Of a DNA stretch of 64,000 bases, positions 8,479-60,242 are shown one piece after another. The stretch lies in assembly GCA_041747555.1 (NCBI GenBank), contig JBGTEY010000011.1:12696-76695 (forward strand), written 5' to 3'. The position numbers and the translations under genes are program-made. The stretch is from Patescibacteria group bacterium. Its GTDB lineage: Bacteria; Patescibacteriota; Microgenomatia; UBA1400; PJMF01. Each line of letters starts with the position of its first letter. Positions within the stretch are counted from its first letter, which is position 1. The notes under the pieces were generated by a model that saw nothing but the letters and a program-made list of their open reading frames with translations, ran no database searches and was not told where the DNA came from.

Positions 8479-9273
8479 TCAATTCTCAAAATTCAGTTCT
8501 TCCACGTTGAAGAGGTCCTCGAGTCCACCGCCGAGCACTTCATCTTGCTCTGGTAAGTCAGAGCTGACAAATGAGGCGAGTTCTTCAAGTACAGCGATGT
8601 CCTGATTATTTAGCTTTGGCAGCGGTGCCTCCACGGTGGTTTTGACGGGCTGGGTGAAAAAGTAGGTTTTAGTGGCGAGACGTGATTCAATAAGTGGTTC
8701 ATTTTCTGCATTCGTGGCAGCTTGCACTCCAAGCGTTAGGGTATTAATCGTGGTAAATGGACTAATTTTTTCAATAAGAATTAAGAAATCCTGTACTTGT
8801 GAAAAAGTCCCCTCAATGACCATCTCAAACTCCAAATACCCAACCGCAGCGCTCGCTCCACGTGCTCGAACGGTCGGCTGAATTGCCTCTAATCCTGCGG
8901 AGTCGCTCGCAATTTGTCCTGGAGAAATCTCAAAATCTTGAATCACCACACCCGTTTCAACTGCAATAGAACTCAAGCTCATCATCAATTCAAGGAGTGG
9001 TTTTTTGGAAGGCAGTGCGGCATCGACTAGATCAGCCTGTCCAAATTCTGGAGTGAATTTGACGTTTTCTAGGTCAGTCAATTTGCGCTCGAGTTGCAGT
9101 AATTTAGGTGTTTCTTTGTCGAGCTCGGCTCTGAGATCAAACACCTGCTGAACCTGAGGTACGAGGCCAAAAAGTAACAACCCCACTGCAGAAACCCCGA
9201 GTACAATAGCCGTCGCCATTTGCTTGCGCGTTGCCAAGAAAATACTAATATTAAATTCGTTAAATGATGTCAT
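8479..9273 (-). CDS. pilO: Type IV pilus assembly protein PilO-like
   Basis: N-terminal TM helix, a coiled-coil, then a periplasmic domain. Last gene of the pilM-pilN-pilO run. Overlaps pilN by 4 nt. Confidence 0.6.
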   Translation of the reverse strand: MTSFNEFNISIFLATRKQMATAIVLGVSAVGLLLFGLVPQVQQVFDLRAELDKETPKLLQLERKLTDLENVKFTPEFGQADLVDAALPSKKPLLELMMSLSSIAVETGVVIQDFEISPGQIASDSAGLEAIQPTVRARGASAAVGYLEFEMVIEGTFSQVQDFLILIEKISPFTTINTLTLGVQAATNAENEPLIESRLATKTYFFTQPVKTTVEAPLPKLNNQDIAVLEELASFVSSDLPEQDEVLGGGLEDLFNVEELNFEN

Positions 9274-9962
9274 GGTGTAAATCCTTCATCTGACTCTAAA
9301 ATTTCTCGTGCAGGATCAAAATCGGCGTCAAGTGGACCGGGTATCGCAGGATCACTGAGCTCCCCAGGTTCATTTGAGGCAGGCGCATTGGGATCTGCTG
9401 CCACAGGACCACCTGGAGTGGCCAGGATTACAGTGAGCGTTAAATTATAACTAGCTTGACTGGTTCTTGATAAACCACTCTTTGATATCCCCGCAAATTT
9501 ACTCTTCACCTCTGGGCTATCGAGTGTTGCGAATACTTGCTCCATTACAAACACACTCGGAGCCTGAACCGTGAACTGCAAAATATCATTTGAGCTCGAA
9601 GAGTAATCAATTTCACTAATAATCACCTCAGGACCAAATACTTGACTAAAAAATTCAAACGCTTCTTGTTTATCTTTTCTAACACCAAATAATTCAGTGA
9701 GCTGTTTGAGTTTTTGAGCAAACACGTTGTAATCGAGCTCCGTCTGTTGCTGAGATGAAATTACTTGCCTAATTGTATCTTGTTCATCGAGTACCCCACG
9801 AACCTGGAAGACATAATACAATCTTGTCCCGAGCGCAATCAAAAAGACTGCAAACACCGCCACAAACACATAGACTACTTTCTTGAGAATTTCATAGTCC
9901 TTGCGCTGGGTAAGATCAAGCCTTTTGCGCCGCTCACCAACAAAATTAATAGTCTTTGACAT
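9270..9962 (-). CDS. pilN: Type IV pilus assembly protein PilN-like
   Basis: Short cytoplasmic N-terminus, a single TM helix (VVYVFVAVFAVFLIALG), then a periplasmic domain. Located between pilM and pilO. Confidence 0.6.
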   Translation of the reverse strand: MSKTINFVGERRKRLDLTQRKDYEILKKVVYVFVAVFAVFLIALGTRLYYVFQVRGVLDEQDTIRQVISSQQQTELDYNVFAQKLKQLTELFGVRKDKQEAFEFFSQVFGPEVIISEIDYSSSSNDILQFTVQAPSVFVMEQVFATLDSPEVKSKFAGISKSGLSRTSQASYNLTLTVILATPGGPVAADPNAPASNEPGELSDPAIPGPLDADFDPAREILESDEGFTP

Positions 9963-10034
9963 AGTTCTATTTCCTTTGAGCCAGTTCTAAAGGCTCAAAA
10001 TCGTGCGTTTTCAAGCAAGGAGCATCATCCCCTA

Positions 10035-11045
10035 CTACATTTCACGCTGCATTAACCCCATACAGACGGTCATGCTTGGCTGATTTACGGTATTGGGAAC
10101 GTTATCGGTCACCCCCGCAAATGGCGACGCGACAAGCACTTCTACTCCGAGCTCAGCCGTCGCAAGTTGGACTATTTCCGGGAGCATCGCCGAACCACCA
10201 GAGAGAACAACGCGCTTGATCGGCTGCTGTGTGTGCTGGTTATTGAAGAATTGTGCTGACTTGGCAATTTCTCCCGTGAGAATTCTGACTCCTGGGAGCA
10301 GAGCTTCGCGGACTTTACCTTCAAATTGATTTTCAATGAGTCCGTAGGTGCGCTTGTATTGCTCTGCCTGGACAGTATCGAGTCCAACGGCTGATTCCAA
10401 CGCGCGCGTCAATACCTGACCACCATTCATATTTGTAATCACAAACTGGAGTTCTCCCTGGTGGATAGCAAACAAATTCATGCTTGAAGCACCAATATGA
10501 GCTACAAGCGTGGTTGGGTCATCTACATTGAATTGAAGTGAGCGGGCAATCGAGATAACTTGTGTTTCTAGAAGTGTTGGCTCTACCCCCAGCTGATGAA
10601 ACATATCTACAAAGCGCTCAACCATAGCCTTGCGGGTGCCAACGAGGAGGACGCGCATTTGACCTTGGTCTTTTTTAACTGGTCGGTACAGCACCTGATA
10701 TTCGAGCGAAAGCTCCTCTGGTGGAATAGGAATATGTTGCTCTGCTTGCCAGCCAATTGCTGACGCCAACTCGGCGTCGGTGAGCGGGGGAATGGAGATA
10801 ACTTTGGTAGAAACAACTGTTTCGGGGAGGGCGAGACGAACATCGGTGCGTGCGAGCTCATTATCTTTTAGAAATGAATCAATCAAGGTACCAAGCTGCT
10901 CTTCACTGGCGTCGTCGGTGGGCATTGCTAGTCCCGTGGTGTTGAGGACGTCTACTGCGCGCTCGATCGTTGGACGAGTTCCTGGCTTGCCCGCGATTGC
11001 TTTTATACTGTAGGTGCCGATATCAAGTGCGATGGACTTCGCCAT
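10035..11045 (-). CDS. pilM: Type IV pilus assembly ATPase-fold protein PilM
   Basis: Actin-like/FtsA-like N-terminus MAKSIALDIGTYSIKAIAG. 336 aa. Confidence 0.85.
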   Translation of the reverse strand: MAKSIALDIGTYSIKAIAGKPGTRPTIERAVDVLNTTGLAMPTDDASEEQLGTLIDSFLKDNELARTDVRLALPETVVSTKVISIPPLTDAELASAIGWQAEQHIPIPPEELSLEYQVLYRPVKKDQGQMRVLLVGTRKAMVERFVDMFHQLGVEPTLLETQVISIARSLQFNVDDPTTLVAHIGASSMNLFAIHQGELQFVITNMNGGQVLTRALESAVGLDTVQAEQYKRTYGLIENQFEGKVREALLPGVRILTGEIAKSAQFFNNQHTQQPIKRVVLSGGSAMLPEIVQLATAELGVEVLVASPFAGVTDNVPNTVNQPSMTVCMGLMQREM

Positions 11046-11070
11046 ACGTGCCTTTCTTCATGTGCTCTAG

Positions 11071-11871
11071 TTATTTAACTAACGCTGCTCCGCTATATAC
11101 TGCATAATCCATGATTGAAGGCGCGACCGGTAGGGTTCTCGTGACCTGAATCGTTCTCTGTTCGTCGCCAAATGTATTGCTTGCTTCAGATCTGACCCTA
11201 TAAAATTGATCAGGCATATTATTACCTGCTACGCGGATATGAGTGTCATGATACACAGCTTTGATACGGACAAAAAGGTCGTTATTATTAACCGACAAAT
11301 TATAGCGAAGCGTATAGCCGCTGGAGTTTGAATTTTGCGCATTATCAAAATTATCAGATCCACAGCCTGGTGGACCAACCGGAATGTGTCGGACGCGATT
11401 TCTACCTGAGGTGTAGGAATAGACAGAAAAGATCAGTGAAGCTTTTTCGTTGCAGGGATTTTCTCGAGCCCAGCGGACCTCTAAATTGCCATTTACTGCA
11501 TTGTCGAGTCGAACCATGGCACTGAGACCCTCGGTGAGGCGAGTTTCCAATACGTCTGATGGGGTGATGGTGTAGCTGACATCGACACCGTCGATCGTTG
11601 CAACATCGGTTTCTGCGCCACTCAAACTATCAAAATCTTGCGAAAGCGCATCTTCTACACCAGTTTCTGCGGCATTAAAAACACGGCTCGATTCTGATTG
11701 CTGTTGAGAGAGGAAGACTTCTTGGGTGGTGCGGGTGGCAATTGAAAGGCCGATTGTGAGAAGGACCACCATGATGAGGAGGACGACAACTGCGACTTGA
11801 CCAGATTGATTGGCACGCTCAGAGAGTGGCGAAAATTTCCTGGTGGTGGGCAGCATACGAGTTGGCATCAT
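11071..11871 (-). CDS. PilX-N-domain minor pilin-like protein
   Basis: N-terminal QSGQVAVVVLLIMVVLLTIGLSIATRTTQE matches the PilX_N pattern (QRG.AL..VL...L..G...E). Lies upstream of pilM on the same strand. Confidence 0.55.
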   Translation of the reverse strand: MMPTRMLPTTRKFSPLSERANQSGQVAVVVLLIMVVLLTIGLSIATRTTQEVFLSQQQSESSRVFNAAETGVEDALSQDFDSLSGAETDVATIDGVDVSYTITPSDVLETRLTEGLSAMVRLDNAVNGNLEVRWARENPCNEKASLIFSVYSYTSGRNRVRHIPVGPPGCGSDNFDNAQNSNSSGYTLRYNLSVNNNDLFVRIKAVYHDTHIRVAGNNMPDQFYRVRSEASNTFGDEQRTIQVTRTLPVAPSIMDYAVYSGAALVK

Positions 11872-11945: not shown

Positions 11946-12515
11946 TTAAGAGTAATCTTCGCTTTGTTCCATGTCTTTTTCGATGAGGTTTCTGAGATAA
12001 ACGGATCGCGGGATCTTTTTTGATTGAGAGATCCAATCTAAATACTGGCCGATCGCTGGCGATATGAAGAAATTGAATCTAACATCTTGGTGACTTGATG
12101 CGTACTCAATAGCATCCTCAAGCACCTTCCTTAAATTTTTCTGATTGTACCTCGCTAGCAGTAGTAAATCTCCACCTTCGTCTCTTAAAAGATGCGGGTC
12201 AACTCCGTCACGATATAGCGCAATTACGGGCTTATTCATAGACAATGCTAGCGCTATTTCCTGACCAAGACCAATACTGCTTTTCGAAACTTCCACTACA
12301 ACTAAGTCTGCTTTTTTCTTGAGCTTAGTTAAGCTCTTTTGAGCCTCTATTGCCTCTTCTGTTGACTGAGATTCATATGCATTTTTTGTTTTTGATAAAA
12401 TTGCATCATTGATCACGGAATGTCCCAGCTCGTACATAGTTGAGACAATGGTATTGCAGTTAACTTTGAGTTCTTCGTCCAGCTGACTTATAGAGACACT
12501 AAAATAGATTTTCAT
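11946..12515 (-). CDS. DNPH1/nucleoside 2-deoxyribosyltransferase-like domain fused to C-terminal ribbon-helix-helix (CopG-like) domain
   Basis: N-terminal KIYFS... and ADLVVVEVSKSSIGLGQEIALALSMNKPVIALY align closely with the DNPH1/Rcl and NDT catalytic region (ADVVVAEVTQPSLGVGYELGRAVAFNKRILCLF); the nucleophile Glu is retained. The C-terminal RFNFFISPAIGQYLDWISQ...RSVYLRNLI is an RHH-like beta-strand plus two helices. It lies 27 nt downstream of the deaminase gene on the same strand. Confidence 0.55.
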   Translation of the reverse strand: MKIYFSVSISQLDEELKVNCNTIVSTMYELGHSVINDAILSKTKNAYESQSTEEAIEAQKSLTKLKKKADLVVVEVSKSSIGLGQEIALALSMNKPVIALYRDGVDPHLLRDEGGDLLLLARYNQKNLRKVLEDAIEYASSHQDVRFNFFISPAIGQYLDWISQSKKIPRSVYLRNLIEKDMEQSEDYS

Positions 12516-12542
12516 GTGCTAATTATATCACTATTTGGATGT

Positions 12543-13025
12543 TTAAACGGAGGGAATACTTAAAGATAGGTCTAGATTTTTAATTGGCTCACCTTGTAGA
12601 AATAGATCTTCGCACTCTTTAGCCATCACACCAGGGACAACTTCAATCTTATATTTGTCGGTCTTAAATCTCTTTGGAAGGTGGTGTTGCAAACACATGC
12701 CCCCGCTTTCATCTATGTTTGTCCCATAAACAACTCTCTTTATGTGGTTTAGCAAAATTGCCCCTAAGCACATCGGGCAAGGTTCATATGTAGCGTAAAG
12801 CGTAGCCTCTGATCCTCTTTTAGTGAGCAACTCAGATATCTCATTCATTGCGATAATTTCTGCGTGATTGATTTTATTATTACTAGAGTAAACTTTGTTA
12901 TATCCCCTAGAAACTATCTTACTATCAATAACTATTACACAACCAATTGGCCAGTTTCCTGATTCTAAAGCCTTCATGGCTTCATCAAGTGCCTCTTTCA
13001 TGTAAAAATCATCGTTTGGTTTCAT
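12543..13025 (-). CDS. CDA-fold zinc deaminase, TadA/guanine-deaminase (GuaD)-like
   Basis: HAEIIAM and YEPCPMCLGAI zinc-binding motifs. The PCPMCLGAI string is identical to B. subtilis GuaD; the overall layout also fits tRNA adenosine deaminase TadA. 160 aa. Confidence 0.8.
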   Translation of the reverse strand: MKPNDDFYMKEALDEAMKALESGNWPIGCVIVIDSKIVSRGYNKVYSSNNKINHAEIIAMNEISELLTKRGSEATLYATYEPCPMCLGAILLNHIKRVVYGTNIDESGGMCLQHHLPKRFKTDKYKIEVVPGVMAKECEDLFLQGEPIKNLDLSLSIPSV

Positions 13026-13196
13026 GACAGCTTCTAGCTACTTCTAATAGTCTATATCATTCATTTAAAAAATTTCCGCAATAATACCATACATGCGTCT
13101 TTTATGCGTATATCTATTACTTGAAACGGGGTAGTATATCATTTTTTGATTATTATTGATATAATTATAATTGTTAATATTTCTTAAATTTTATAA

Positions 13197-13751
13197 ATGA
13201 AAATTCATTTTTCAGCAGCAGTTGACGGTGACCAAGTCCGTTATGCTCAAATAGTGAAAATAATTCAAGATCTTGGACATACCTTGATCACGGACCATTA
13301 TTTAGTCACTACCATTGAAAATATCAAAAGACAGAATGGCGAAGAAGGGGATCAATATCTCAGAAATGTTCAGAAATGGAACACTCTCGCAGATATTGTA
13401 GTCTTTGAGGTATCAAAATCTGATATAAGTACCGGTTATGAGATTGGGTTCGCATTACAATTACAAAAACAAGTTGTCGTTTTGGTTGGCGACGACCAAC
13501 CCACTTTCCCTCACACACTTAAAACGCTAAACAACTTGAATCTTCAAATAATTGAATATAATTCTAAAAACTTAAAGTTTGCGATCGAGCAAGCAATTGA
13601 TTATGCTAACTCATGCAAGAACATTAGATTTAATTTTATGCTTTCTAGTGAACTGAATGCCTATCTCACTTTGATATCCGAAAAGAAAAAGTCAACCAAG
13701 TCAGAATTTCTAAGATCACTACTCATTGGCTACCGCAATAAGCACAGCTAA
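13197..13751 (+). CDS. Paralogous DNPH1/NDT-like domain + C-terminal RHH domain protein
   Basis: MKIHFSAAV...ADIVVFEVSKSDISTGYEIGFAL (Glu retained). C-terminal IRFNFMLSSELNAYLTLISEKKKSTKSEFLRSLLIGY is an RHH fold. Divergently transcribed from the deaminase operon. An extended -10 box TGATATAAT lies at 13157-13165. Confidence 0.55.
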   Translation: MKIHFSAAVDGDQVRYAQIVKIIQDLGHTLITDHYLVTTIENIKRQNGEEGDQYLRNVQKWNTLADIVVFEVSKSDISTGYEIGFALQLQKQVVVLVGDDQPTFPHTLKTLNNLNLQIIEYNSKNLKFAIEQAIDYANSCKNIRFNFMLSSELNAYLTLISEKKKSTKSEFLRSLLIGYRNKHS

Positions 13752-13891: not shown

Positions 13892-15808
13892 ATGAGATCA
13901 AAAGATCTATCACCGCTATCTTTGCTATTACCTGAGTTATCTCACCTAATTCTTCATGCGATGAATGAGGAAAGAGGCGAGTCAGATGATGAGATTGAGT
14001 TTTCTGTGGAAGATATCGAACTAATCGAATATCGAAAATTCCTAATTTCCAATTTACTTTCAGAAATTATTCCTGCTGACGAGTCGAATAACGCGTCAGT
14101 CTATATTGGAGTCTCTCTTGATGAGAACACGGTTGACCTTATTACAGATATTGCAGAACAAAGCGTACGCGACGGCCTTACACCTGACGAGTACAAATAC
14201 TTAGCAGTAACTTTGAAACAATCAATTGCTGCAGCTCTTGATGCAGAAGAATATTTACTACTCACCCCAGAAGCAATTGACGAAATGTCAGACGAGGAGT
14301 ATCAGCAAACAGTTCTAGAAATTGCACAGGGAATCGTATCAGCACTTGATAACAATCCCGAATTACCTATAAAAACGAGGGAACGATGGCGAAGAATTTC
14401 TAAACTCATTCTATTTTTAATTATAGCTGTCCTCTTCCTCGCTGCTTGCGGATCAGTAGAACCTGCAGTAGATGATCTGGCAACAAGGACAACCCTTGCA
14501 CCAGAGGATGACGATGACGACTCAACCGGAGGTGATGGCGGTGATGATGGCGGAAATGGCCCTCCAGATGAGGAAGAACCAACACCAACGCCTGTACCAC
14601 AACCCACTGGAACTCCAGAACCAGAGCCAGAACCAACTGCAACACCAACTATACCTGACGCAGAAAGCATAGAAGTTATAGCCAGCGATGATGTTCTTAG
14701 GGAATTCCACGCAAAGTTTGTTGAATTTCTTTTCACGAACGAAGCATTTGTATGGCAATTTGATACAAATATTGAATTTGAGGTCTATGAGACAGCGATA
14801 GGAAATGTACTGTTAGCAGAAATTGTAGATGATTTCGAATATCAAGGAGAAAAATATCCCGAAGGTACTCACTTGAGGTTTGCGAGTCTTGATAGCACAG
14901 AACCTTACTTTGCGTCCGTTGAAGGCAGTCAATCTGTGATCGATCTAGCAGGTGGAGTAGGTACTGTAGTTGATATCACCGTCGATTTAGAAACAGGACA
15001 AACAGTCGCAGTTGATGCAGATGGAAATGTACTTGCGCAAGTTAATCTAGAATCGAATCAGTGGGAGATTAATCCAGATTTATTGATACCAGATTTGCCA
15101 CCAGCGACCGTGGAGACGTTGTTGACGGATACGACACTTGATGAATCAACGATACTCAGATATTTGGTTCGTCCATTTAATACAGAATCGCGTGATACTA
15201 TCGCATTCGGGCCACCTGCAGAAGGCGTTGAGTTCTCTGATGAAGAAATGAGCTGGGAAATAATCGTTGATAGATCAGACCCTGCTGCAACATTCTATGA
15301 CAACATGCGACTTTACACTGGATTTGACGTTGAAGTAGCATCTCGTGCTTGGGAAGAGGCGCCTGATGGCTATACAGAATTAGCAGTAAAATATATCGGA
15401 CACTACACAGCGGATTTTGGAGAACACGGTACCGAAGAATGCGCTATTTTTCAAACGTGGATTGAAGAAGAAGGTCAAGTTATACCTCTCATTTTCGCGG
15501 TCAGTTTATCAGATGCTCACATGTTGAAAAATTTTAATTATCTAGATGAAAACTTTGAAGTAAAATCAAATTCACCACAATCTGCTACTTCTATTGTTGG
15601 TAACTTGGAGCGAGCAAATCCTTATATGATAATAGCGGTAGCAATAGGCAATAAGAATGATGCTGCCGATTCTTTTGCTCATGGTTTAGTAACACCCGAC
15701 GATCGCCTTCCTGACTTTGCAGTTTTTAACTCAATACATGACGTACTTGGAACAGAAGTTACCAGCACGCCCGCAATTGGTGCTATCTTTGCGCAGGCCC
15801 AGAAGTAA
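13892..15808 (+). CDS. Hypothetical bitopic envelope protein (acidic N-domain, lipobox-like TM segment, Pro/Thr/Glu-rich linker, ~400-aa extracytoplasmic domain)
   Basis: Residues ~165-190 (RERWRRISKLILFLIIAVLFLAACGS) look like a lipoprotein signal peptide, but are preceded by ~165 aa of acidic sequence in the same ORF. A low-complexity DDDDSTGGDGGDDGG/PTPTPVPQPTGTPEPEPEPTATPT linker follows. No recognisable catalytic motif. Confidence 0.45.
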   Translation: MRSKDLSPLSLLLPELSHLILHAMNEERGESDDEIEFSVEDIELIEYRKFLISNLLSEIIPADESNNASVYIGVSLDENTVDLITDIAEQSVRDGLTPDEYKYLAVTLKQSIAAALDAEEYLLLTPEAIDEMSDEEYQQTVLEIAQGIVSALDNNPELPIKTRERWRRISKLILFLIIAVLFLAACGSVEPAVDDLATRTTLAPEDDDDDSTGGDGGDDGGNGPPDEEEPTPTPVPQPTGTPEPEPEPTATPTIPDAESIEVIASDDVLREFHAKFVEFLFTNEAFVWQFDTNIEFEVYETAIGNVLLAEIVDDFEYQGEKYPEGTHLRFASLDSTEPYFASVEGSQSVIDLAGGVGTVVDITVDLETGQTVAVDADGNVLAQVNLESNQWEINPDLLIPDLPPATVETLLTDTTLDESTILRYLVRPFNTESRDTIAFGPPAEGVEFSDEEMSWEIIVDRSDPAATFYDNMRLYTGFDVEVASRAWEEAPDGYTELAVKYIGHYTADFGEHGTEECAIFQTWIEEEGQVIPLIFAVSLSDAHMLKNFNYLDENFEVKSNSPQSATSIVGNLERANPYMIIAVAIGNKNDAADSFAHGLVTPDDRLPDFAVFNSIHDVLGTEVTSTPAIGAIFAQAQK

Positions 15809-15861: not shown

Positions 15862-16503
15862 ATGGAAAGTTCAAAGCAATCTTTTTATGTGGTGGGGAGT
15901 TTTTTAGTTGTCATTCTCATTGCTGTAGTTGGATATCTGTGGTATCAAAATCAATCAATCAAAAGTATTGCATTACCAACAACTAGTCAACCAAGTACCG
16001 TAGATCCTCGAACTGCACCTGTCATGCCCAAGCAAGATGGGGTCGTTGCAGACACACCACTGCTTGGTATTTTTGAAATAGGTTCGTCTCGAATTCCTAC
16101 TATTTCTGGCATTGTCGAGTCTGTTGACTTAATCGATTTGGGAAATCCTGGGCAACCGGAGCAATACTTTGTAGTCATTTCTAGTTTAGAAATACCTGAG
16201 GCAAAAATCAGAGTTGGAATCGGCCATGCTCAATACATGACCTCGGTTAGATACACAGGTGGCACCCCAACAGCAGGCAAAATTGTCGAAGAAAACATGC
16301 GTGTCAGGGACTTAGTTGAAAAAATAATACCAGGAGAAATTTTCACTGCTGATCTAACATTTCCTCAAGAGCAACCCGAGATACGATCAACCTTTATGGA
16401 CGACATAAAAGCATTTGAAGCAGAGGTGCTTGAAGGCAGTAACCCAAACCCATTCAATGTCCACTACTTTAGAGTACAAAAAATTGCGCTGCCACAAACA
16501 TGA
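15862..16503 (+). CDS. Hypothetical N-terminally membrane-anchored protein
   Basis: TM helix (FYVVGSFLVVILIAVVGYLWY) followed by a ~180-aa exported domain. Overlaps the next gene by ATGA. Confidence 0.45.
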   Translation: MESSKQSFYVVGSFLVVILIAVVGYLWYQNQSIKSIALPTTSQPSTVDPRTAPVMPKQDGVVADTPLLGIFEIGSSRIPTISGIVESVDLIDLGNPGQPEQYFVVISSLEIPEAKIRVGIGHAQYMTSVRYTGGTPTAGKIVEENMRVRDLVEKIIPGEIFTADLTFPQEQPEIRSTFMDDIKAFEAEVLEGSNPNPFNVHYFRVQKIALPQT

Positions 16504-19500
16504 CAAAAAGAGGCATCTTTAACCTTCTCGGGCTCATTCTTATTGTTTTTAGTGTGATTTTTTTCTACCAAACAAGAGTAGTGCAGGTTGCTGATGCTGT
16601 GCAGGGTTGGGCGCCCGGGAACTGCGGATGGACATTATCGGTGGTGCAGTGGTCTTGCAACACCAATACCGATCGTTGTTACGAATGGGAATCTGGAGAA
16701 ACGCCAAGATGGTATTGCGATGCAACAAGTGTTGGATACACTACCGAAGCGCTGTGTAACGACTCATGCACAGGCAACTGCGAATATACCTGCCTTAATG
16801 GTTGGGCAAGGCATTGCGTCATCAGTGACACAGATGTCGGCTGCGACCATCCCAACGAAAACACCTGCACCGCTGACGTTTACGCCGTTCAATGCTCTTC
16901 ATTAGCTGGAGGCGATGACTGTTCCACCAGCACTGAACCCATCGACGTCCGACAATGCTGGGTTGGCAATGGCCCTCCACCACCAGACGATCCACCCCCA
17001 GGAGGAGGAGGTTGCGACGGCAACTGGTGGGGCTGTGGAGCTGGTTCTTGTTTGGAACCTTTCGATAATCAATCAGCATGTGAAACTTCAACTGGAGGAT
17101 CATGCCAATGTGGCTCATGCCCTGCAGCGTGCACTAGCTCAACTGGTAGACGTGCAATTTTTCTCTTCGAGGACACAAATGAGAATGGCGCCTGGGATCA
17201 TGCCGCAGGTGAGCTTAGGATTTCTACCACGAGTTCATGCGTTGCATCAAATGCACAATATGTAGCTGGGGCACAGATTCTCGTTGATGGAGAAGCACGA
17301 TTTGAAAGCTGCAATGTAGGTAATTCAGAGTTCACTGGAGCAGTCTGTACTTGGGATGATCCTGTACCTCCTGCGACGCAGTGCAATGATGGCGACGATA
17401 ATGGCTTCACCGTAGGACCATGCGAAAGATGGGGTCCAGAAAATAATGGAGTAAATAGTACCTGCTTTACCCAACACAGTTGCGGTGGGGGATGTCATTA
17501 TTCTGGTGACGGATGTAACGGAGCAGTTCCAGAAGCTGGTGTAATCTGCGATTCTGGAAATTGTTCCGGTTCAGGAGATCTCAAATCCGGCAGCTACCTC
17601 ATCATGCCTCGCGACACCGGCAACCATACCGTTGGTGCTACGGTTCCTGCAGGCTGGCGTATTTCAAATGGTATGTCCGGCAACCCAATCACGGTCAACT
17701 GGAGCAGAACAAATGGCTCGTGTGAGGGCGGTCCCGTTGGAATTGGCTTAGTACGCGATACAAATACATCATGCTACGTTTCGCCATCGTCAACAACAGT
17801 TGCCGGTGGAACAGGATCAGTTTCTGTGCGCCTCTGGGGAAGCACAGATGCGACTACCACGCACACCGCCAGACTGTGGCTGCAAACTAAAAATCCTAAC
17901 ACGACTGCACCTACAGCACTTCAGATGAACCCAATTCCAGCACTGACAACTCAGTTTTTAAATTCAGGACGATATTCCTATCAATATACTGGCGCAGCTT
18001 GTACAACTAGTAACGGCACAAGTTGCACAACCTTAACCGACGTCACTGGACTTCCTCAAGGGTCATATTACTTCCATTGCGATGTTGTTCAGGGAACTTC
18101 TGCACCTTTCGCCCCAGAATGCTCTGGAAATCCATCGTGCTTGTATGAAGGTTTGGGTGGTTTAGTCGATTGTGCTGCAAACGGCTGGCAAAGTTGTTTG
18201 CCATCATCTGCAACACCAACAGACAATGCTCCTCTGACTGCCACATGCGTTCCGTCCTGTACACCAGCTTGCGGAGGACCAGATGGTTGTGGTGGAACCT
18301 GCGCGAGTACTGATTTAGGTATGCCAAGTTCGGTTCAAAATCTCGCACCTACAGGCAATTACACTGTCACTAGTACAACAGTTCCCATTACTTGGACTCC
18401 ACCTGCCACCAACGCAGCACTAGTTGATTCATATGAAATTAAAGTCTTTGCTGGAATTCTACCGATTAATGAAAATGCTATTACTAACCGCCCTTGCAAC
18501 AACACGCCTGGTGGTGCTGTCTGCGCTTCTGTTAGCAATACGATCACGAGCTGGAACTATGCTCCTCAAGTTGCAAAATCAAGAAATATTAATATAGCTG
18601 TGAGACCACGAAATCTATCTTGTAGTAATCAATCTGCCCCGTGGGTTGTCACCAATGTCACACTTCAGGGGGAAATTACTGGAAACTTCTACATTGATAA
18701 TGGCAATGCTGCCATTGTTGGTGGATTCTGCAGAAATGGTGGCACACAACCAGCTTCTGTTCAGACAGGCACCAACATCGTAACTACCATGAATAGTAAT
18801 CCAGTTGGTTCAAGTTCAATTGGGGCCAGCACATATACCATTTCAGCTGTTCCGTACACACCGACCAGCGCCTGGGGACCTCTAGGAATTATGACCCTGA
18901 CATTAGATAATCCTGATGCAGAAAACACGCTAGCATGCGCATGCCCAGTACCTGGCTCTGACCCATTTGTCTGCCAGTATGGCGGTGTTGCGGCACCAAG
19001 ACTTGGACCAAATGCTCCAGTCAATTGGTACCTCGACCTCTACGACCTCAGTAACGACCCTTGGTGGCAAACAAGAGGCGGTTTGGCGTATGCAAGAACT
19101 GGTGTGCTCAGTACAGACATTCCACGTCCTTGTGTTGATGAAAATAATCCAGCTGTGTGTGTTCCGTATATGATTACTCGGGAAGTGAGCAATGGGCTGG
19201 CTGTTAGTGCAGGTGTGCCAATGACGGGTGGGGGAGCAATACTATCTGGTACCGATGCACCTGGCTATTTCACCGACCGCAACCCTCAACCAAGAGCACA
19301 AGGCACTGATCACAGCGGAATTGTTCAGGAAGATTACGCATTCTTCTCAAGTCTCTACAATCTCAGTCAGGTTGCGCAAGTTGCCAGCAGCAATTTAGTC
19401 AATAAGGACAGCTTGCCAGCACCCGTTAATCCAGATGCAGATGGCACCGAAGTATATTACCGAAATGGAGACCTCACCATCACGCCAACAGAAATTTGGG

Positions 19501-19973
19501 CAATTGCTCCAGGTGAAAAGAAAGTACTTTTCGTAAATGGTGATCTAACTTTCCAGGGACCAGGGCACACCAGCAATCGCATGATTCGCGTAGATACCCA
19601 AATTGGTGGCGGTTCAGGTTTTATAGCGTTTATCGCCTCTGGAGATATCACTTTTGACGAAAATGTTGGACATCCTAATTATGCTCAAGAAACTCCCAGC
19701 AATATCGATGGTTTATTTGTCGCTGATGGACAGATCATTATTGAAGGAGCTGCCGATGCTAATGTCAGCGACCGCAAGTTCCTTGGGGCAGGCACATTTG
19801 TAGGCTGGAGTGGTTTTGATATGCAGCGCGATTTTGCCAATGACGCAGATCCACTCTCACGAGCGCTCAATAACCTTGATCCAACCGAAAGTTTTGAATT
19901 CCTACCAGGCTTAACTAGGCATATTCCAGATAAAATGAAAACACCTGTCATTGAATGGCAGGAAGTCAACTAG
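16500..19973 (+). CDS. Giant Cys-rich surface protein (1157 aa) with FN3 domain and beta-helix-like C-terminus; candidate pilus-associated adhesin
   Basis: N-terminal TM/signal anchor. More than 70 Cys in the first ~600 aa (CxxC, GCG, CQCGSC patterns). An FN3-like segment PSSVQNLAPTGNYTVTSTTVPITWTPP...YEIKVF. The C-terminal repetitive G/N/D-rich region looks beta-helix-like. Encoded directly upstream of minor pilin genes. Confidence 0.5.
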   Translation: MTKRGIFNLLGLILIVFSVIFFYQTRVVQVADAVQGWAPGNCGWTLSVVQWSCNTNTDRCYEWESGETPRWYCDATSVGYTTEALCNDSCTGNCEYTCLNGWARHCVISDTDVGCDHPNENTCTADVYAVQCSSLAGGDDCSTSTEPIDVRQCWVGNGPPPPDDPPPGGGGCDGNWWGCGAGSCLEPFDNQSACETSTGGSCQCGSCPAACTSSTGRRAIFLFEDTNENGAWDHAAGELRISTTSSCVASNAQYVAGAQILVDGEARFESCNVGNSEFTGAVCTWDDPVPPATQCNDGDDNGFTVGPCERWGPENNGVNSTCFTQHSCGGGCHYSGDGCNGAVPEAGVICDSGNCSGSGDLKSGSYLIMPRDTGNHTVGATVPAGWRISNGMSGNPITVNWSRTNGSCEGGPVGIGLVRDTNTSCYVSPSSTTVAGGTGSVSVRLWGSTDATTTHTARLWLQTKNPNTTAPTALQMNPIPALTTQFLNSGRYSYQYTGAACTTSNGTSCTTLTDVTGLPQGSYYFHCDVVQGTSAPFAPECSGNPSCLYEGLGGLVDCAANGWQSCLPSSATPTDNAPLTATCVPSCTPACGGPDGCGGTCASTDLGMPSSVQNLAPTGNYTVTSTTVPITWTPPATNAALVDSYEIKVFAGILPINENAITNRPCNNTPGGAVCASVSNTITSWNYAPQVAKSRNINIAVRPRNLSCSNQSAPWVVTNVTLQGEITGNFYIDNGNAAIVGGFCRNGGTQPASVQTGTNIVTTMNSNPVGSSSIGASTYTISAVPYTPTSAWGPLGIMTLTLDNPDAENTLACACPVPGSDPFVCQYGGVAAPRLGPNAPVNWYLDLYDLSNDPWWQTRGGLAYARTGVLSTDIPRPCVDENNPAVCVPYMITREVSNGLAVSAGVPMTGGGAILSGTDAPGYFTDRNPQPRAQGTDHSGIVQEDYAFFSSLYNLSQVAQVASSNLVNKDSLPAPVNPDADGTEVYYRNGDLTITPTEIWAIAPGEKKVLFVNGDLTFQGPGHTSNRMIRVDTQIGGGSGFIAFIASGDITFDENVGHPNYAQETPSNIDGLFVADGQIIIEGAADANVSDRKFLGAGTFVGWSGFDMQRDFANDADPLSRALNNLDPTESFEFLPGLTRHIPDKMKTPVIEWQEVN

Positions 19974-55769: not shown

Positions 55770-56432
55770 TCAGATTTTGGCCAGAATTGCTTTTAAAATC
55801 CTTGGATTGAACTGCATTGCGTGCAATCTTGATGCGATTTCATCCATCTCAATCCCCTGCTCTTTCCAACGAGACGACAAATCATAAACCGTTTCTTGAA
55901 ACTCGTAGGGAAAAATTACCCATAATACTGTTTCTGCACTGTAAAAATCAGGTTGAATGCTGGAATGGGGCTTAAAGAAAACCGTGGCTGTTGTGATCTG
56001 TGTAACGCCCTGCTCTTTGAGGTGATCAAGGGTAAATTGGAGCGACTGACCGGTATCTGCGATGTCGTCAAACAGTAGTATATGTTCGCTCGGGTCGAGT
56101 GGAGGCAACGCTTGATATACGGCAATATCACTCGATTGGTTCGAGATGCCATCATAGGTTCTGACGCCAAAACTCGCAACGGGAACACCGCCCAAGAAAT
56201 CAGACAGACTTCTCGCCATCGGCCAGCCACCTTTGGCCAAGGTAATGATTCTATCAATTGGATGCAATGATGTATGATTCGATATTTTCTGCGCAAGAGA
56301 AAAAACCTCTGCTTCAAGCTGAGCCCAGGTCAAACATAAGAATCTGATCGATTCATTTGGAAAGGTTACCTCGGAAAAAATAGTCTGCTCTGCAGCACCA
56401 TTTTCTTCGTTGTCATGATGCATATCGTGCAT
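55770..56432 (-). CDS. gpt: Xanthine-guanine phosphoribosyltransferase-like (type I PRTase)
   Basis: PRPP-binding LLFDDIADTGQSL. The layout parallels E. coli Gpt (VTWDML.../IAVSRGG/IDDLVDTGGT/FAKP). Confidence 0.7.
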   Translation of the reverse strand: MHDMHHDNEENGAAEQTIFSEVTFPNESIRFLCLTWAQLEAEVFSLAQKISNHTSLHPIDRIITLAKGGWPMARSLSDFLGGVPVASFGVRTYDGISNQSSDIAVYQALPPLDPSEHILLFDDIADTGQSLQFTLDHLKEQGVTQITTATVFFKPHSSIQPDFYSAETVLWVIFPYEFQETVYDLSSRWKEQGIEMDEIASRLHAMQFNPRILKAILAKI

Positions 56433-59121: not shown

Positions 59122-60051
59122 TCACGCATGCTTCTCTAAAAACCTGTCAAAAGCCATCTCTCGAATGGTTGCACCTTCAGCTGTAAAATCATGTCCACTC
59201 GAGGTGGCAATGACAAATTCTGAATTATTATGCGTTGTGGCAAGCTCATGTGCTTTCTGAATTGGACAAAGAATGTCATACCGACCGTGAACAATAACCA
59301 TTGGTATATTCTTAATTTTTTCAATATTCTTCAAAATAAAATTGTCGGGAATAAATGCTGAATTCATTTCATAGTGAACGAATATTTTAACCGATGCAAT
59401 GTCTGCATCTGAAATATCCTCTGGGTTGGTATATGAAATTGGTGAAAGTGAAGAAAATAAATTATTCTCCCAATTTTGCACGCCAGCCGCAATTTCTTTT
59501 TGCTCGGCAGGGCTTGCTGCCTCAAGTTCTCTCAAAATATCTTCATTTTGCGTTTCAACTTGTATGTTAAATCGTTTAAAAAATGCCATTCGTTTTTCCC
59601 ACACATCTGGCAGAAGGCGCGAAGCACCGTGCTCTTGAGTCATTGCCCACTCAACAGAATCTCGATCAGCCAAAAATACGGCAGATATTAGAATACCCCG
59701 AGTTTTTTTGGGATGCTGAATTGCATACAACAATGCCAGTGTCGAACCCCAACTAGATCCAGCTACAAACCAAGTTTTTATATCAAGTTGTTCTCTTATT
59801 CGCTCTGCATCTGCTAACAAATCTTCCGTTGTATTGTGTTCGAGTTTTCCGAGAGGCGTACTTTTGCCACACCCACGCTGGTCAAACAAAATAACTCGGT
59901 ATTTTTTTAGATCAAACCGCTCTGCGTGCGCAGGCTTACTCCTTGAGCCAGGACCGCCATGAAAGGAAAGGATTGCAGGACCATCAAGATTTCCGTGTTC
60001 AGAAAAAGAAACACTGTGGCCGTTATTTTCTGGAAGTGTGTGAATGTTCAT
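59122..60051 (-). CDS. pip: Proline iminopeptidase-like alpha/beta hydrolase (S33)
   Basis: HGGPGSRS oxyanion motif, nucleophile elbow GSSWGS, and RVILFDQRGCGKSTP. The start was moved to Met51 (MNIHTLPENN) because the track's N-terminal extension runs through tRNA-Leu. Confidence 0.75.
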   Translation of the reverse strand: MNIHTLPENNGHSVSFSEHGNLDGPAILSFHGGPGSRSKPAHAERFDLKKYRVILFDQRGCGKSTPLGKLEHNTTEDLLADAERIREQLDIKTWFVAGSSWGSTLALLYAIQHPKKTRGILISAVFLADRDSVEWAMTQEHGASRLLPDVWEKRMAFFKRFNIQVETQNEDILRELEAASPAEQKEIAAGVQNWENNLFSSLSPISYTNPEDISDADIASVKIFVHYEMNSAFIPDNFILKNIEKIKNIPMVIVHGRYDILCPIQKAHELATTHNNSEFVIATSSGHDFTAEGATIREMAFDRFLEKHA

Positions 60052-60064
60052 GCACTTTTGGTAA

Positions 60065-60148
60065 TTTTTACCGTGCCTCGGGTGGGACTCGAACCCACAA
60101 GGTCGTGAAACCATGAGTTTTTGAGACTCACGCGTATACCAATTCCGC
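60065..60148 (-). tRNA. tRNA-Leu (anticodon CAA), class II with long variable arm
   Basis: Reverse complement: GCCUCGGUGGCGGAAUUGGUAUACGCGUGAGUCUCAAAAACUCAUGGUUUCACGACCUUGUGGGUUCGAGUCCCACCCGAGGCA. 7-bp acceptor stem, CAA anticodon in the loop CUCAAAA, a 14-nt variable arm, T-loop UUCGAGU, and discriminator A. Confidence 0.85.
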
Positions 60149-60242
60149 CACCGAGGCAATTTGTATGTCTTTTGATCGACAATGGAATAATTATACCTCA
60201 AGCTAGCTTGCTTTTTTAGGGGAATTCAGGCATTATTAATAC

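Follow-up and report, generated by a model that had tools for sequence, protein, structure and literature searches.

DNPH1-like proteins fused to a ribbon-helix-helix domain and their variable partner enzymes in Patescibacteria

Ligand-gated repressors with a ribbon-helix-helix (RHH) fold are known from NikR and MetJ, and enzymes which at the same time act as repressors are exemplified by PutA and BirA. Regulators in which an RHH domain is coupled to a ligand-binding or enzymatic one are familiar, and so is the fold of the N-glycosidase DNPH1 (Rcl). The only known physiological substrate of the DNPH1 pocket is, to our knowledge, 5-hydroxymethyl-dUMP, a typical phage-type modified nucleotide. 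In humans, DCTD and DNPH1 constitute a sanitising route that leads from a deaminase to a glycosidase. We know of no report of a DNPH1 fold as the sensor of an RHH regulator. Patescibacteria (candidate phyla radiation, CPR) have tiny genomes with few recognisable transcription factors, they depend on salvaged nucleotides, and their regulation is largely obscure. Here, we analyse two paralogous genes encoding proteins, termed A and B, in which a DNPH1-like domain is joined to a C-terminal RHH domain, and the deaminase gene which lies between them. They are located on a stretch of 64,000 nucleotides (the window) from a Patescibacteria group bacterium (GenBank assembly GCA_041747555.1, contig JBGTEY010000011.1, positions 12,696 to 76,695).

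In this study, we show that A and B belong to a large Patescibacteria family of fusion proteins, whose genes follow variable enzyme genes in AT-rich cassettes and co-vary with them. We tentatively propose that the fusion proteins are nucleotide-gated repressors dedicated to their partner enzymes. What is new here is the placing of a DNPH1 fold in a proposed regulator role, the C-terminal position of the RHH domain, the partner-specific paralogues and the pairing with nucleotide-acting enzymes including viperin, all undescribed in the databases and literature searched.

Domain architecture and family extent

Fusion protein A (11946-12515, minus strand, 189 amino acids) is encoded by the last gene of a cassette. 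It follows, on the shared strand and after a gap of 27 nt, a TadA-like deaminase of the cytidine deaminase (CDA) fold (12543-13025, minus strand, 160 amino acids). Fusion protein B (13197-13751, plus strand, 184 amino acids) is a diverged paralogue and is separated from the deaminase gene by a divergent spacer of 171 nt with 24% GC (13026-13196). The three open reading frames (ORFs) lie exactly where an earlier note, made from the window's sequence, had placed them, and the 27-nt gap and the divergent spacer were described correctly as well. A and B align over their full length with 38% identity (E=5e-35), the family hidden Markov model (HMM) recovers A with E=2.4e-75, and no extra copies of the fusion or deaminase gene type are found within the 64-kb window.

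The N-terminal domain comprises amino acids 1-141 of A (12093-12515, minus strand) and the 13197-13610 segment of B. Its matches to the Pfam model PF05014 (Nuc_deoxyrib_tr) amount to 18.0 bits for A and 27.5 bits for B, both under the gathering threshold of 28.8. B alone matches rat and human DNPH1 in the PDB with E about 1e-7, and a profile built from 106 family members matches Rcl with E=1.6e-23 along the full catalytic domain. An AlphaFold2 model of A, based on the 106-member alignment, reached a pLDDT of 94.8 and a pTM of 0.83. A Foldseek search with this model returned DNPH1 structures on ranks 1-26, with TM scores of about 0.8 normalised to the target, and the nearest folds are two known nucleotide glycosidases, MilB and DNPH1. 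The N-terminal domain thus belongs to the DNPH1/MilB clade of the N-glycosidase superfamily formed by DNPH1/Rcl, MilB and the nucleoside deoxyribosyltransferases (NDTs), which bears out the DNPH1/NDT-like Rossmann identity proposed before.

The RHH domain comprises amino acids 144-186 of A (11958-12086, minus strand), with a strand D-V-R146-F-N148-F-F and two helices ending in PRSVYLR175NLI, and the 13620-13742 segment of B. In the model of A, the C-terminus of about 45 residues has a beta-alpha-alpha topology, with an extended segment at 142-152 and helices at 153-166 and 170-184, at pLDDT values above 85. A single-sequence AlphaFold2 model of B, which is of low confidence (pLDDT 51.7), places a strand at 143-148 and helices at 151-163 and 168-183. 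Among 112 C-termini of the family, 36 have a match to Pfam RHH_3 and 8 to RHH_1 (best E-value 3.5e-7), with further matches to RHH_5, RepB-RCR_reg and NikA-like models. The PDB profile matches of the C-termini are all RHH proteins, among them the CopG-family protein 7by2 (E=0.006) and YiiF; the RHH_3 match of A itself is sub-threshold (E=0.018). The strand residues R146 and N148 and the helix-2 residue R175 are near-invariant across the family, which is consistent with DNA binding. Structure and profile comparisons have thus recovered both the DNPH1 Rossmann core and the RHH fold which the earlier note expected, and the DNPH1/NDT-like plus RHH architecture is confirmed.

In human DNPH1, Y24, D80 and E104 form the catalytic triad, E55 and H56 sit on a helical element, and the serines S98 and, in trans, S128' contact the phosphate (PMC10603095). 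These residues were mapped onto the family via the profile alignment, rat E93 and D69 being equivalent to human E104 and D80. The nucleophile E104 corresponds to E86 of A and E82 of B, so that it is retained in both copies as noted before. Y24 is Y4 in A and a His in B; about 60-68% of the family have Tyr and the remainder Phe or His. The E55/H56 pair reads D37/A38 in A and Asp-His in B, and a D/E-H pair is present in many subfamilies. S98 corresponds to S80 of A and is Ser in about 85-90% of the family; in B it is replaced by Asp, as in nucleoside-specific NDTs. A second serine, S8, is kept in A and is Ala in B. The general acid D80 is L62 in A and Val in B, and the family has Leu, Met, Val, Ala, Ser or Thr but never an acidic residue at this position, the register of which is fixed by the neighbouring ungapped aDvvvaEvS block. 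S128' is P107 in A, Pro in B and mostly Pro in the family; MilB also has no Ser here.

Glu is found at the nucleophile position in 59 of the 79 copies linked to an enzyme gene, a majority, as compared to 5 of 24 solo or divergent copies, in which Leu is dominant; overall it is missing in about a quarter to a third of the members. E75, G84 and Y123 of the N-terminal domain are near-invariant structural residues. Selection is strongest on the DNA-binding module and the phosphate/ribose pocket and weaker on catalysis, since the Glu varies while E75, G84, Y123, R146, N148 and R175 hardly do. B represents a subtype with the signature HADG...DH...EDGE, i.e. His at the Tyr position, Ala and Asp at the two phosphate-Ser positions and a retained Glu. 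Elsewhere this subtype follows the unassigned protein u91 (see below), one methyltransferase class or a MoaA-like enzyme. A metagenomic protein of 401 amino acids (P0051) has two DNPH1-like domains (PF05014, 45.9 bits) around a linker of about 120 residues, which in place of an RHH domain shows a weak match, under the cutoff, to Xre-type helix-turn-helix (HTH) domains (HTH_31, E=0.0027). This suggests a possible sister architecture, in which the DNPH1-like domain would pair with another DNA-binding domain.

An exhaustive HMMER search with A over 1.84 billion cluster representatives detected 893 relatives at E<=1e-3, and 420 (50%-identity clusters) at E<=1e-10. Nearly all are 185-195 amino acids long and align end to end. 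A pattern scan based on a 14-sequence subset of the alignment, with one genome per species, yielded 152 relatives, of which 79 loci were retrieved (designated by L numbers); neighbourhood counts cover 80 loci. The retrieved loci stem essentially all from Patescibacteria-type metagenome-assembled genomes (MAGs), including Microgenomates, Woesebacteria, Chisholmbacteria, Collierbacteria, Paceibacteria and others. Some taxon labels look unreliable: Patescibacteria-like contigs (L003-L005, L009, L011, L012, L047, L053 and many others) are filed as 'uncultured Pseudomonadales', 'Vitreimonas' or 'Methylococcaceae', and the isolate name of one such contig contains 'PATE'. Family members are unnamed or called 'hypothetical protein'. 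No NCBIfam, PADLOC or PHROG model covers the fusion protein, PADLOC and PHROGs scans of A and B gave nothing meaningful, and 2.9 million viral contigs contained only two weak relatives. A paper describing an NDT/DNPH1-RHH protein was not found in the literature searched. The earlier remark that no such architecture has been characterised therefore agrees with the characterised proteins, curated models and literature at hand.

Cassettes and partner enzymes

Two to four copies of the family lie within 5 kb in 35 of the 80 loci, and in 98 of 122 copies a gene on the same strand ends at most 150 nt upstream, often with an overlap of 1-4 nt. This upstream neighbour is another family copy in 19 cases and otherwise a variable enzyme. 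The general rule is an AT-rich cassette in which a variable nucleotide or small-molecule enzyme gene is followed by the fusion gene. The modules are richer in AT than the other genes of the locus in 70 of 72 loci (mean difference -5.9 points GC, Wilcoxon p=2e-13), and in the window the three-gene block has 31-39% GC as compared to 45-53% in its flanks.

Prokaryotic viperins are the most frequent partners, with 11 loci, and often stand behind a PfkB kinase gene (PADLOC pVip E=5.8e-54; NCBIfam viperin_w_prok 166 bits against a cutoff of 180). Next in frequency are a thymidine-kinase-like P-loop protein (7 loci), a PfkB kinase (6 loci), and, with 5 loci each, the TadA-like deaminase, a phosphoribosyltransferase (PRTase)-like protein with only a weak PADLOC match, and an AAA_33/shikimate-kinase-like kinase. 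Seven different clusters of class I S-adenosylmethionine (SAM) methyltransferases occur at various loci, a MoaA-like radical SAM enzyme at two, and GTP cyclohydrolase II at one (RibA 165 bits, cutoff 148). Two partner families have no assignment, u91 (3 loci) and u136 (2 loci). PDB sequence searches gave no matches for u91, u136 and the PRTase-like cluster cl48, and u91 is likewise without a Pfam, NCBIfam or PADLOC match. The u91 proteins, of 350-390 amino acids, occupy the slot of the deaminase in other genomes with the pilus context described below (L038:3910-4953, L057:3909-4985, L070:3825-4991), and their cognate fusion proteins carry the unusual HADG/EDGE signature of B. Full-length viperins are encoded in Patescibacteria MAGs at L017, L023, L031, L034 (e.g. 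L034:4034-4912), L042, L059, L060, L065, L072, L076 and L080, usually with a PfkB-family kinase, not a nucleotide kinase, before them and always with a DNPH1-RHH gene after them. This three-gene module is not mentioned in the literature searched.

Enzyme and fusion protein co-vary. In 57 of 68 enzyme-linked copies, the most similar fusion protein encoded at a different locus follows an enzyme of the same class; when the partner labels are permuted, this happens in 5.9 cases on average and in at most 16. Such nearest neighbours with the same partner include pairs in different chromosomal contexts (methyltransferase clusters MT74, MT55 and MT76). At L018, L080, L051, L015 and L020, two or three different enzyme-fusion units stand in tandem, and their fusion copies resemble those with the same partner in other genomes, not the adjacent copy. 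Judged from this clustering of fusion sequences by partner enzyme, the pairs are cognate. Mutual information did not reveal specificity-determining positions; it was uninformative with partner groups as small as these.

The deaminase is a clade-specific partner of A, since it adjoins a fusion gene only in the window and L002-L005, i.e. 5 of 80 loci. A family-wide link between deaminase and fusion protein is therefore rejected. The neighbourhood comparison which the earlier note called for shows that the fusion recurs across Patescibacteria and that its partner varies. Orthologues of A in L002-L005 are 59-68% identical and each is located after a deaminase gene, whereas the identity of B to any retrieved family member does not exceed 42%. 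L004 has a counterpart of B with the same signature, also in divergent position. In L005, a remnant of 59 amino acids which matches only the RHH end (L005:3930-4109, minus strand; HMM positions 131-185) occupies the place of the divergent B, which suggests decay of the second fusion copy in this genome.

The CDA fold of the deaminase is evident from Pfam PF00383 (E=4e-25) and from intact HAE and PCPMC zinc motifs, and the protein also matches the toxin-type model MafB19-deam; PADLOC and PHROGs scans gave only CDA-core matches. In the PDB, it matches TadA with E=2e-27 and 99 bits over residues 4-141, and the guanine deaminase GuaD (1wkq) with 6e-14 and 55 bits over residues 4-103 only. The idea of a guanine deaminase, to which the earlier note had matched the PCPMCLGAI motif, is rejected on these scores (99 against 55 bits) and because GuaD aligns with the core only. 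Nor is the protein a canonical TadA: it scores 95.3 bits with the NCBIfam TadA model, below the equivalog cutoff of 150, and its C-terminus, ending in ECEDLFLQGEPIKNL, does not have the basic FFxxxR helix of the aligned TadAs. It falls into its own clade of about 30 Patescibacteria sequences, separated from canonical TadAs by a score gap and named 'nucleoside deaminase' or 'tRNA(adenine34) deaminase' in databases. In the comparison of TadA with GuaD called for earlier, the deaminase is TadA-like, not GuaD-like, and belongs to a Patescibacteria-specific clade. A 50%-identical relative at L081 has an unrelated neighbourhood without a fusion gene.

Cassettes occupy three hotspots. About 40 loci are located between dnaX-ybaB-recR and cysS, about 19 upstream of a PilX-like-pilMNO operon, and about 13 between a protein of 1027 amino acids (cluster c23) and an rmlC-like/M29 peptidase gene pair. 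The window belongs to the pilus context: the type IV pilus operon encoding a PilX_N-like protein (266 amino acids), PilM, PilN and PilO (8479-11871, minus strand) lies 74 nt downstream of A on the same strand. Pilus-context cassettes lie 37-300 nt upstream of the PilX_N-like/PilM/PilN/PilO operon, on the same strand and irrespective of the partner enzyme. Where a cassette lies between recR and cysS, genes for two conserved proteins come after the fusion gene: the first, which often overlaps it by 4-20 nt, encodes a protein of 70 amino acids with a hydrophobic segment at its C-terminal end, and the second a protein of about 166 amino acids (L006, e.g. L006:5585-5797, L007, L012, L024, L026, L027, L035, L036, L040, L043, L045, L056, L063, L066 and L068).

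Promoters and operator candidates

Extended -10 promoter boxes are enriched at the fusion operons. TGnTAnAAT is found upstream of 30 of 86 fusion-containing operons as compared to 16 of 231 correctly oriented control upstream regions of the same loci (p=4e-9). A start-proximal box, which ends 6-7 nt before the start codon, precedes 13 of 124 fusion genes and 15 of 593 other genes (p=2.5e-4). The 13 cases include the orthologues in L002 and L003 and A itself, where the candidate box TGATATAAT (12522-12530, minus strand) ends 6 nt before the ATG. This spacing between box and start codon suggests that a putative internal promoter lets the RHH gene be transcribed without a leader. In the divergent spacer, candidate promoters are TGATATAAT at 13157-13165 (plus strand) for B and TGATATACT at 13133-13141 (minus strand) for the deaminase operon; the two would stand back to back.

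Operators could not be pinpointed in the same way. The spacer holds two ATGCGT repeats (13093-13098 and 13104-13109) and the palindrome AATTATAATT (13163-13172), both of which the earlier note took for RHH operators. The palindrome is at chance level in a spacer with 24% GC (P=0.51) and overlaps the -10 box TGATATAAT. The direct repeats have a nominal, post hoc P of about 0.01, which refers to a GC-containing 6-mer repeat at helical spacing, and their position is not conserved in orthologous spacers. Neither element is thus supported as an operator. Alignment of orthologous spacers by eye, family-wide k-mer enrichment and searches for GTAAGT/ACTTAC dyads and for ATGCGTAT gave nothing beyond the -10 boxes, and footprinting within partner groups revealed no group-specific motif besides them. 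Control spacers contain palindromes about as often (44% vs 39%). Striking palindromes do occur at single loci. As an operator, the most promising candidate in the family is a perfect 17-bp palindrome, TACTTACTCAGTAAGTA, which at L038:3833-3909 lies between two divergent extended -10 boxes, one of a fusion gene and one of a u91-fusion operon; other loci do not share it. A riboswitch or structured 5' untranslated region of the deaminase operon was considered and rejected (no Rfam match at E<=1, folding z=0.27), and the spacer 13026-13196 as a whole has no Rfam match and no significant RNA structure.

Downstream of B, two plus-strand ORFs without a Pfam match adjoin pseudopilin (N_methyl) genes and a prepilin peptidase gene. 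One encodes an acidic protein of 638 amino acids with a low-complexity stretch rich in Pro, Thr and Glu (13892-15808), the other a Cys-rich protein of 1157 amino acids (16500-19973). Both are possibly pilus-associated surface proteins. In a distant part of the window, a tRNA-Leu(CAA) gene (60073-60157, minus strand) lies inside the 5' part of a listed ORF of 359 amino acids with a TTG start (59122-60201, minus strand); the true start of this protein, if the gene exists, is therefore downstream of the tRNA.

Proposed function and comparison with known systems

We favour the reading, at a probability of about 0.45, that A and B are nucleotide-gated RHH repressors dedicated to the upstream partner enzyme and possibly still catalytic. 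Invariant RHH residues, a conserved pocket, relaxed catalytic residues, partner-specific subfamilies, self-contained promoters and the possible HTH sister architecture argue for it. The comparative data thereby favour what the earlier note had offered as a secondary idea, namely a transcription factor whose NDT-like domain serves as its nucleotide sensor. A and B would be one-component regulators, which combine a dimeric DNPH1-type pocket for nucleoside-5'-phosphates with the C-terminal RHH domain. Each family member would partner the enzyme gene immediately upstream, here that of a TadA-like nucleoside/nucleotide deaminase, and the RHH dimer would repress the presumably strong, self-contained extended -10 promoters of the cassette. 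Substrate or product of the partner, when bound in the DNPH1-like pocket, would alter DNA binding and so provide feedback control; in copies which keep the Glu, the pocket may slowly hydrolyse its ligand. A might sense a nucleoside monophosphate, because its phosphate-binding serines are intact, and B an unphosphorylated or different ligand, because of the NDT-like Asp at its phosphate-Ser position. A and B may jointly control the divergent promoter pair.

Several points weigh against this proposal. The main gap in the regulatory model is that no operator, family-wide or specific for a partner group, was found beyond the -10 boxes, even though the invariant R146 and N148 predict a shared half-site. 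Many partners are generic class I methyltransferases for which a nucleotide substrate is not demonstrated. A conflict cassette would explain the low GC, the hotspot location and the viperin partner no worse than metabolic feedback does. Moreover, the Glu nucleophile, the Tyr and the D-H pair equivalent to E55/H56 are kept in most enzyme-linked copies, so that many members can be argued to be real enzymes, not pure sensors.

A conflict or addiction cassette, with the upstream enzyme as a toxic or antiviral effector and the fusion protein as antidote and autorepressor in a HicB-type layout, is an unlikely but serious alternative. The DNPH1-like domain would then destroy or sequester a toxic nucleotide or sense infection, viperin being a producer of 3'-deoxy-3',4'-didehydro-nucleoside triphosphates (ddhNTPs). 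The earlier statement that no signalling partner is adjacent holds for the window; family-wide, the commonest partner is a defence-type viperin, bona fide by the PADLOC (E=5.8e-54) and NCBIfam (166 bits) scores and often joined by a PfkB kinase, and this revives the conflict-system idea. The AT-richness of the cassettes (70 of 72 loci), the exchange of their contents at three hotspots, tandem arrays, cognate pairing in a HicAB-like two-gene layout, predicted strong self-contained promoters, a further predicted promoter inside the cassette from which the RHH gene would be read, and the MafB19-deam match of the deaminase point in the same direction. However, PADLOC and PHROGs see nothing in the fusion protein and only a CDA core in the deaminase, the family is almost absent from viral contigs, and several partners resemble ordinary metabolic enzymes (thymidine-kinase-like, PfkB, and GTP cyclohydrolase II above the RibA cutoff). 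The conserved small-molecule pocket speaks against neutralisation of diverse proteins by protein-protein contacts, and toxicity of the partners would be conjecture. A variant which we hold to be improbable retains the regulator and turns it into a defence switch: DNPH1-RHH proteins would sense infection or the nucleotide pool and switch on 'chemical defence' cassettes in Patescibacteria. The pocket might detect an abnormal nucleotide or, as the hydrolytic Asp is missing, trap it covalently through Glu86; the RHH domain would then leave the strong cassette promoter, and a nucleotide-modifying effector (viperin, deaminase, kinase or methyltransferase) would be induced.

The fusion protein could also be a bifunctional enzyme, an active nucleoside-5'-phosphate N-glycosidase which acts on the product of the upstream enzyme and yields a (modified) base and (deoxy)ribose-5-phosphate, with the RHH domain serving only for PutA-like autoregulation. 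MilB and DNPH1, the closest folds, are both known nucleotide glycosidases, the human DCTD-DNPH1 route offers a parallel, the Glu is retained in A, B and 75% of the enzyme-linked copies, and Tyr4, the phosphate serines Ser8 and Ser80 and the D37-H38 pair equivalent to E55-H56 are conserved in many subfamilies. Yet the general-acid Asp of DNPH1, NDT and MilB is replaced family-wide by Leu, Met, Val or Ala, the in-trans phosphate Ser is Pro, and the Glu is lost in 25% of the enzyme-linked and about 80% of the solo copies while the RHH residues are invariant. It is difficult to see a single chemistry that would suit what kinases, methyltransferases, viperin and GTP cyclohydrolase II produce. We rate this explanation, too, as unlikely but serious. 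Neither it nor the conflict cassette fully excludes the repressor reading. The primary reading of the earlier note, a self-regulated salvage or catabolic module for purine deoxynucleotides (dGMP to guanine to xanthine, then gpt), has become highly improbable. It had in its favour a DNPH1-like fold with Glu, an adjacent and probably co-transcribed CDA-fold deaminase and a PRTase in the window. However, the deaminase is closer to TadA (99 bits) than to guanine deaminase (55 bits, core alignment only), its clade carries the names 'nucleoside deaminase' and 'tRNA(adenine34) deaminase', and the enzyme accompanies a fusion gene in a single clade only (5 of 80 loci). At 55770-56432, the supposed gpt homologue is a type I phosphoribosyltransferase of generic kind and lies at a distance of 42 kb. 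The fusion proteins do not have the catalytic Asp, and the operators proposed for self-regulation are unsupported.

If the repressor reading is true, the fusion family could be one of the main regulatory devices of Patescibacteria and would be the first instance in which a DNA-binding protein uses a DNPH1/NDT glycosidase fold as its sensor, or enzyme-sensor. The defence-switch variant, if true, would mean that ultra-small bacteria have a modular family of nucleotide-gated defence switches which had not been recognised before. The family links the prokaryotic viperins of the CPR to a dedicated third component, and the rule that a fusion gene follows its enzyme gene helps to annotate hundreds of 'hypothetical proteins'. 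The system lends itself to direct tests, as the protein is small and soluble, the promoter region is defined and nucleotides can be offered as a panel of ligands.

With DNPH1/Rcl, the fusion proteins share the fold, clear sequence homology along the entire domain, the nucleophile Glu, the N-terminal YFxxS(I)xG loop and the D/E-H pair on the extra helical element, and probably also the dimeric state. The active-site Tyr is common to DNPH1, A and about 60-68% of the family, and the phosphate Ser behind beta-3 to DNPH1, A and about 85-90%; B has His and Asp at these two positions. The fusion proteins differ from DNPH1 in that neither the general-acid Asp (human D80) nor the Ser acting in trans (S128') is present, the Glu is lost in a sizeable minority, a C-terminal RHH domain is attached, which is seen in no characterised DNPH1, and the proteins are bacterial (Patescibacteria), multi-copy and mostly paired with another enzyme gene. 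Compared to the CMP N-glycosidases MilB and BlsM and to the NDTs of PF05014, the fusion proteins score sub-threshold, have no antibiotic-biosynthesis context and carry the RHH domain. The TadA resemblance of the window's deaminase consists in the best sequence match and intact HAE and PCxxC zinc motifs; YEPCPMCLG in place of LEPCxMCAG, the missing C-terminal tRNA-binding helix rich in FFxxxR(K/R) and the separate Patescibacteria clade set it apart.

Like NikR, MetJ and PutA, the family couples an RHH module to a small-molecule-binding or enzymatic domain, as in metabolite-dependent repression, and PutA likewise unites enzyme and repressor in one chain. Unlike in these proteins, the RHH domain is C-terminal instead of N-terminal, the putative sensor has the DNPH1 fold, and the family has expanded into partner-specific paralogues. 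HicB-type antitoxin systems resemble the cassettes in that the effector gene comes first, the RHH domain is C-terminal, pairing is cognate, the cassettes are AT-rich and sit in hotspots, and an internal promoter is probable; the N-terminal domain of the fusion is, however, a conserved small-molecule pocket and not a toxin-binding fold, and the partners are of nucleotide-metabolic type and not known toxins. Defence modules of pVip and a kinase are approached by the 11 related loci with a pVip partner, which often has a kinase before it like the pVip systems already described. There, the kinase is of PfkB type and a DNPH1-RHH gene closes the operon, while the window itself has no pVip.

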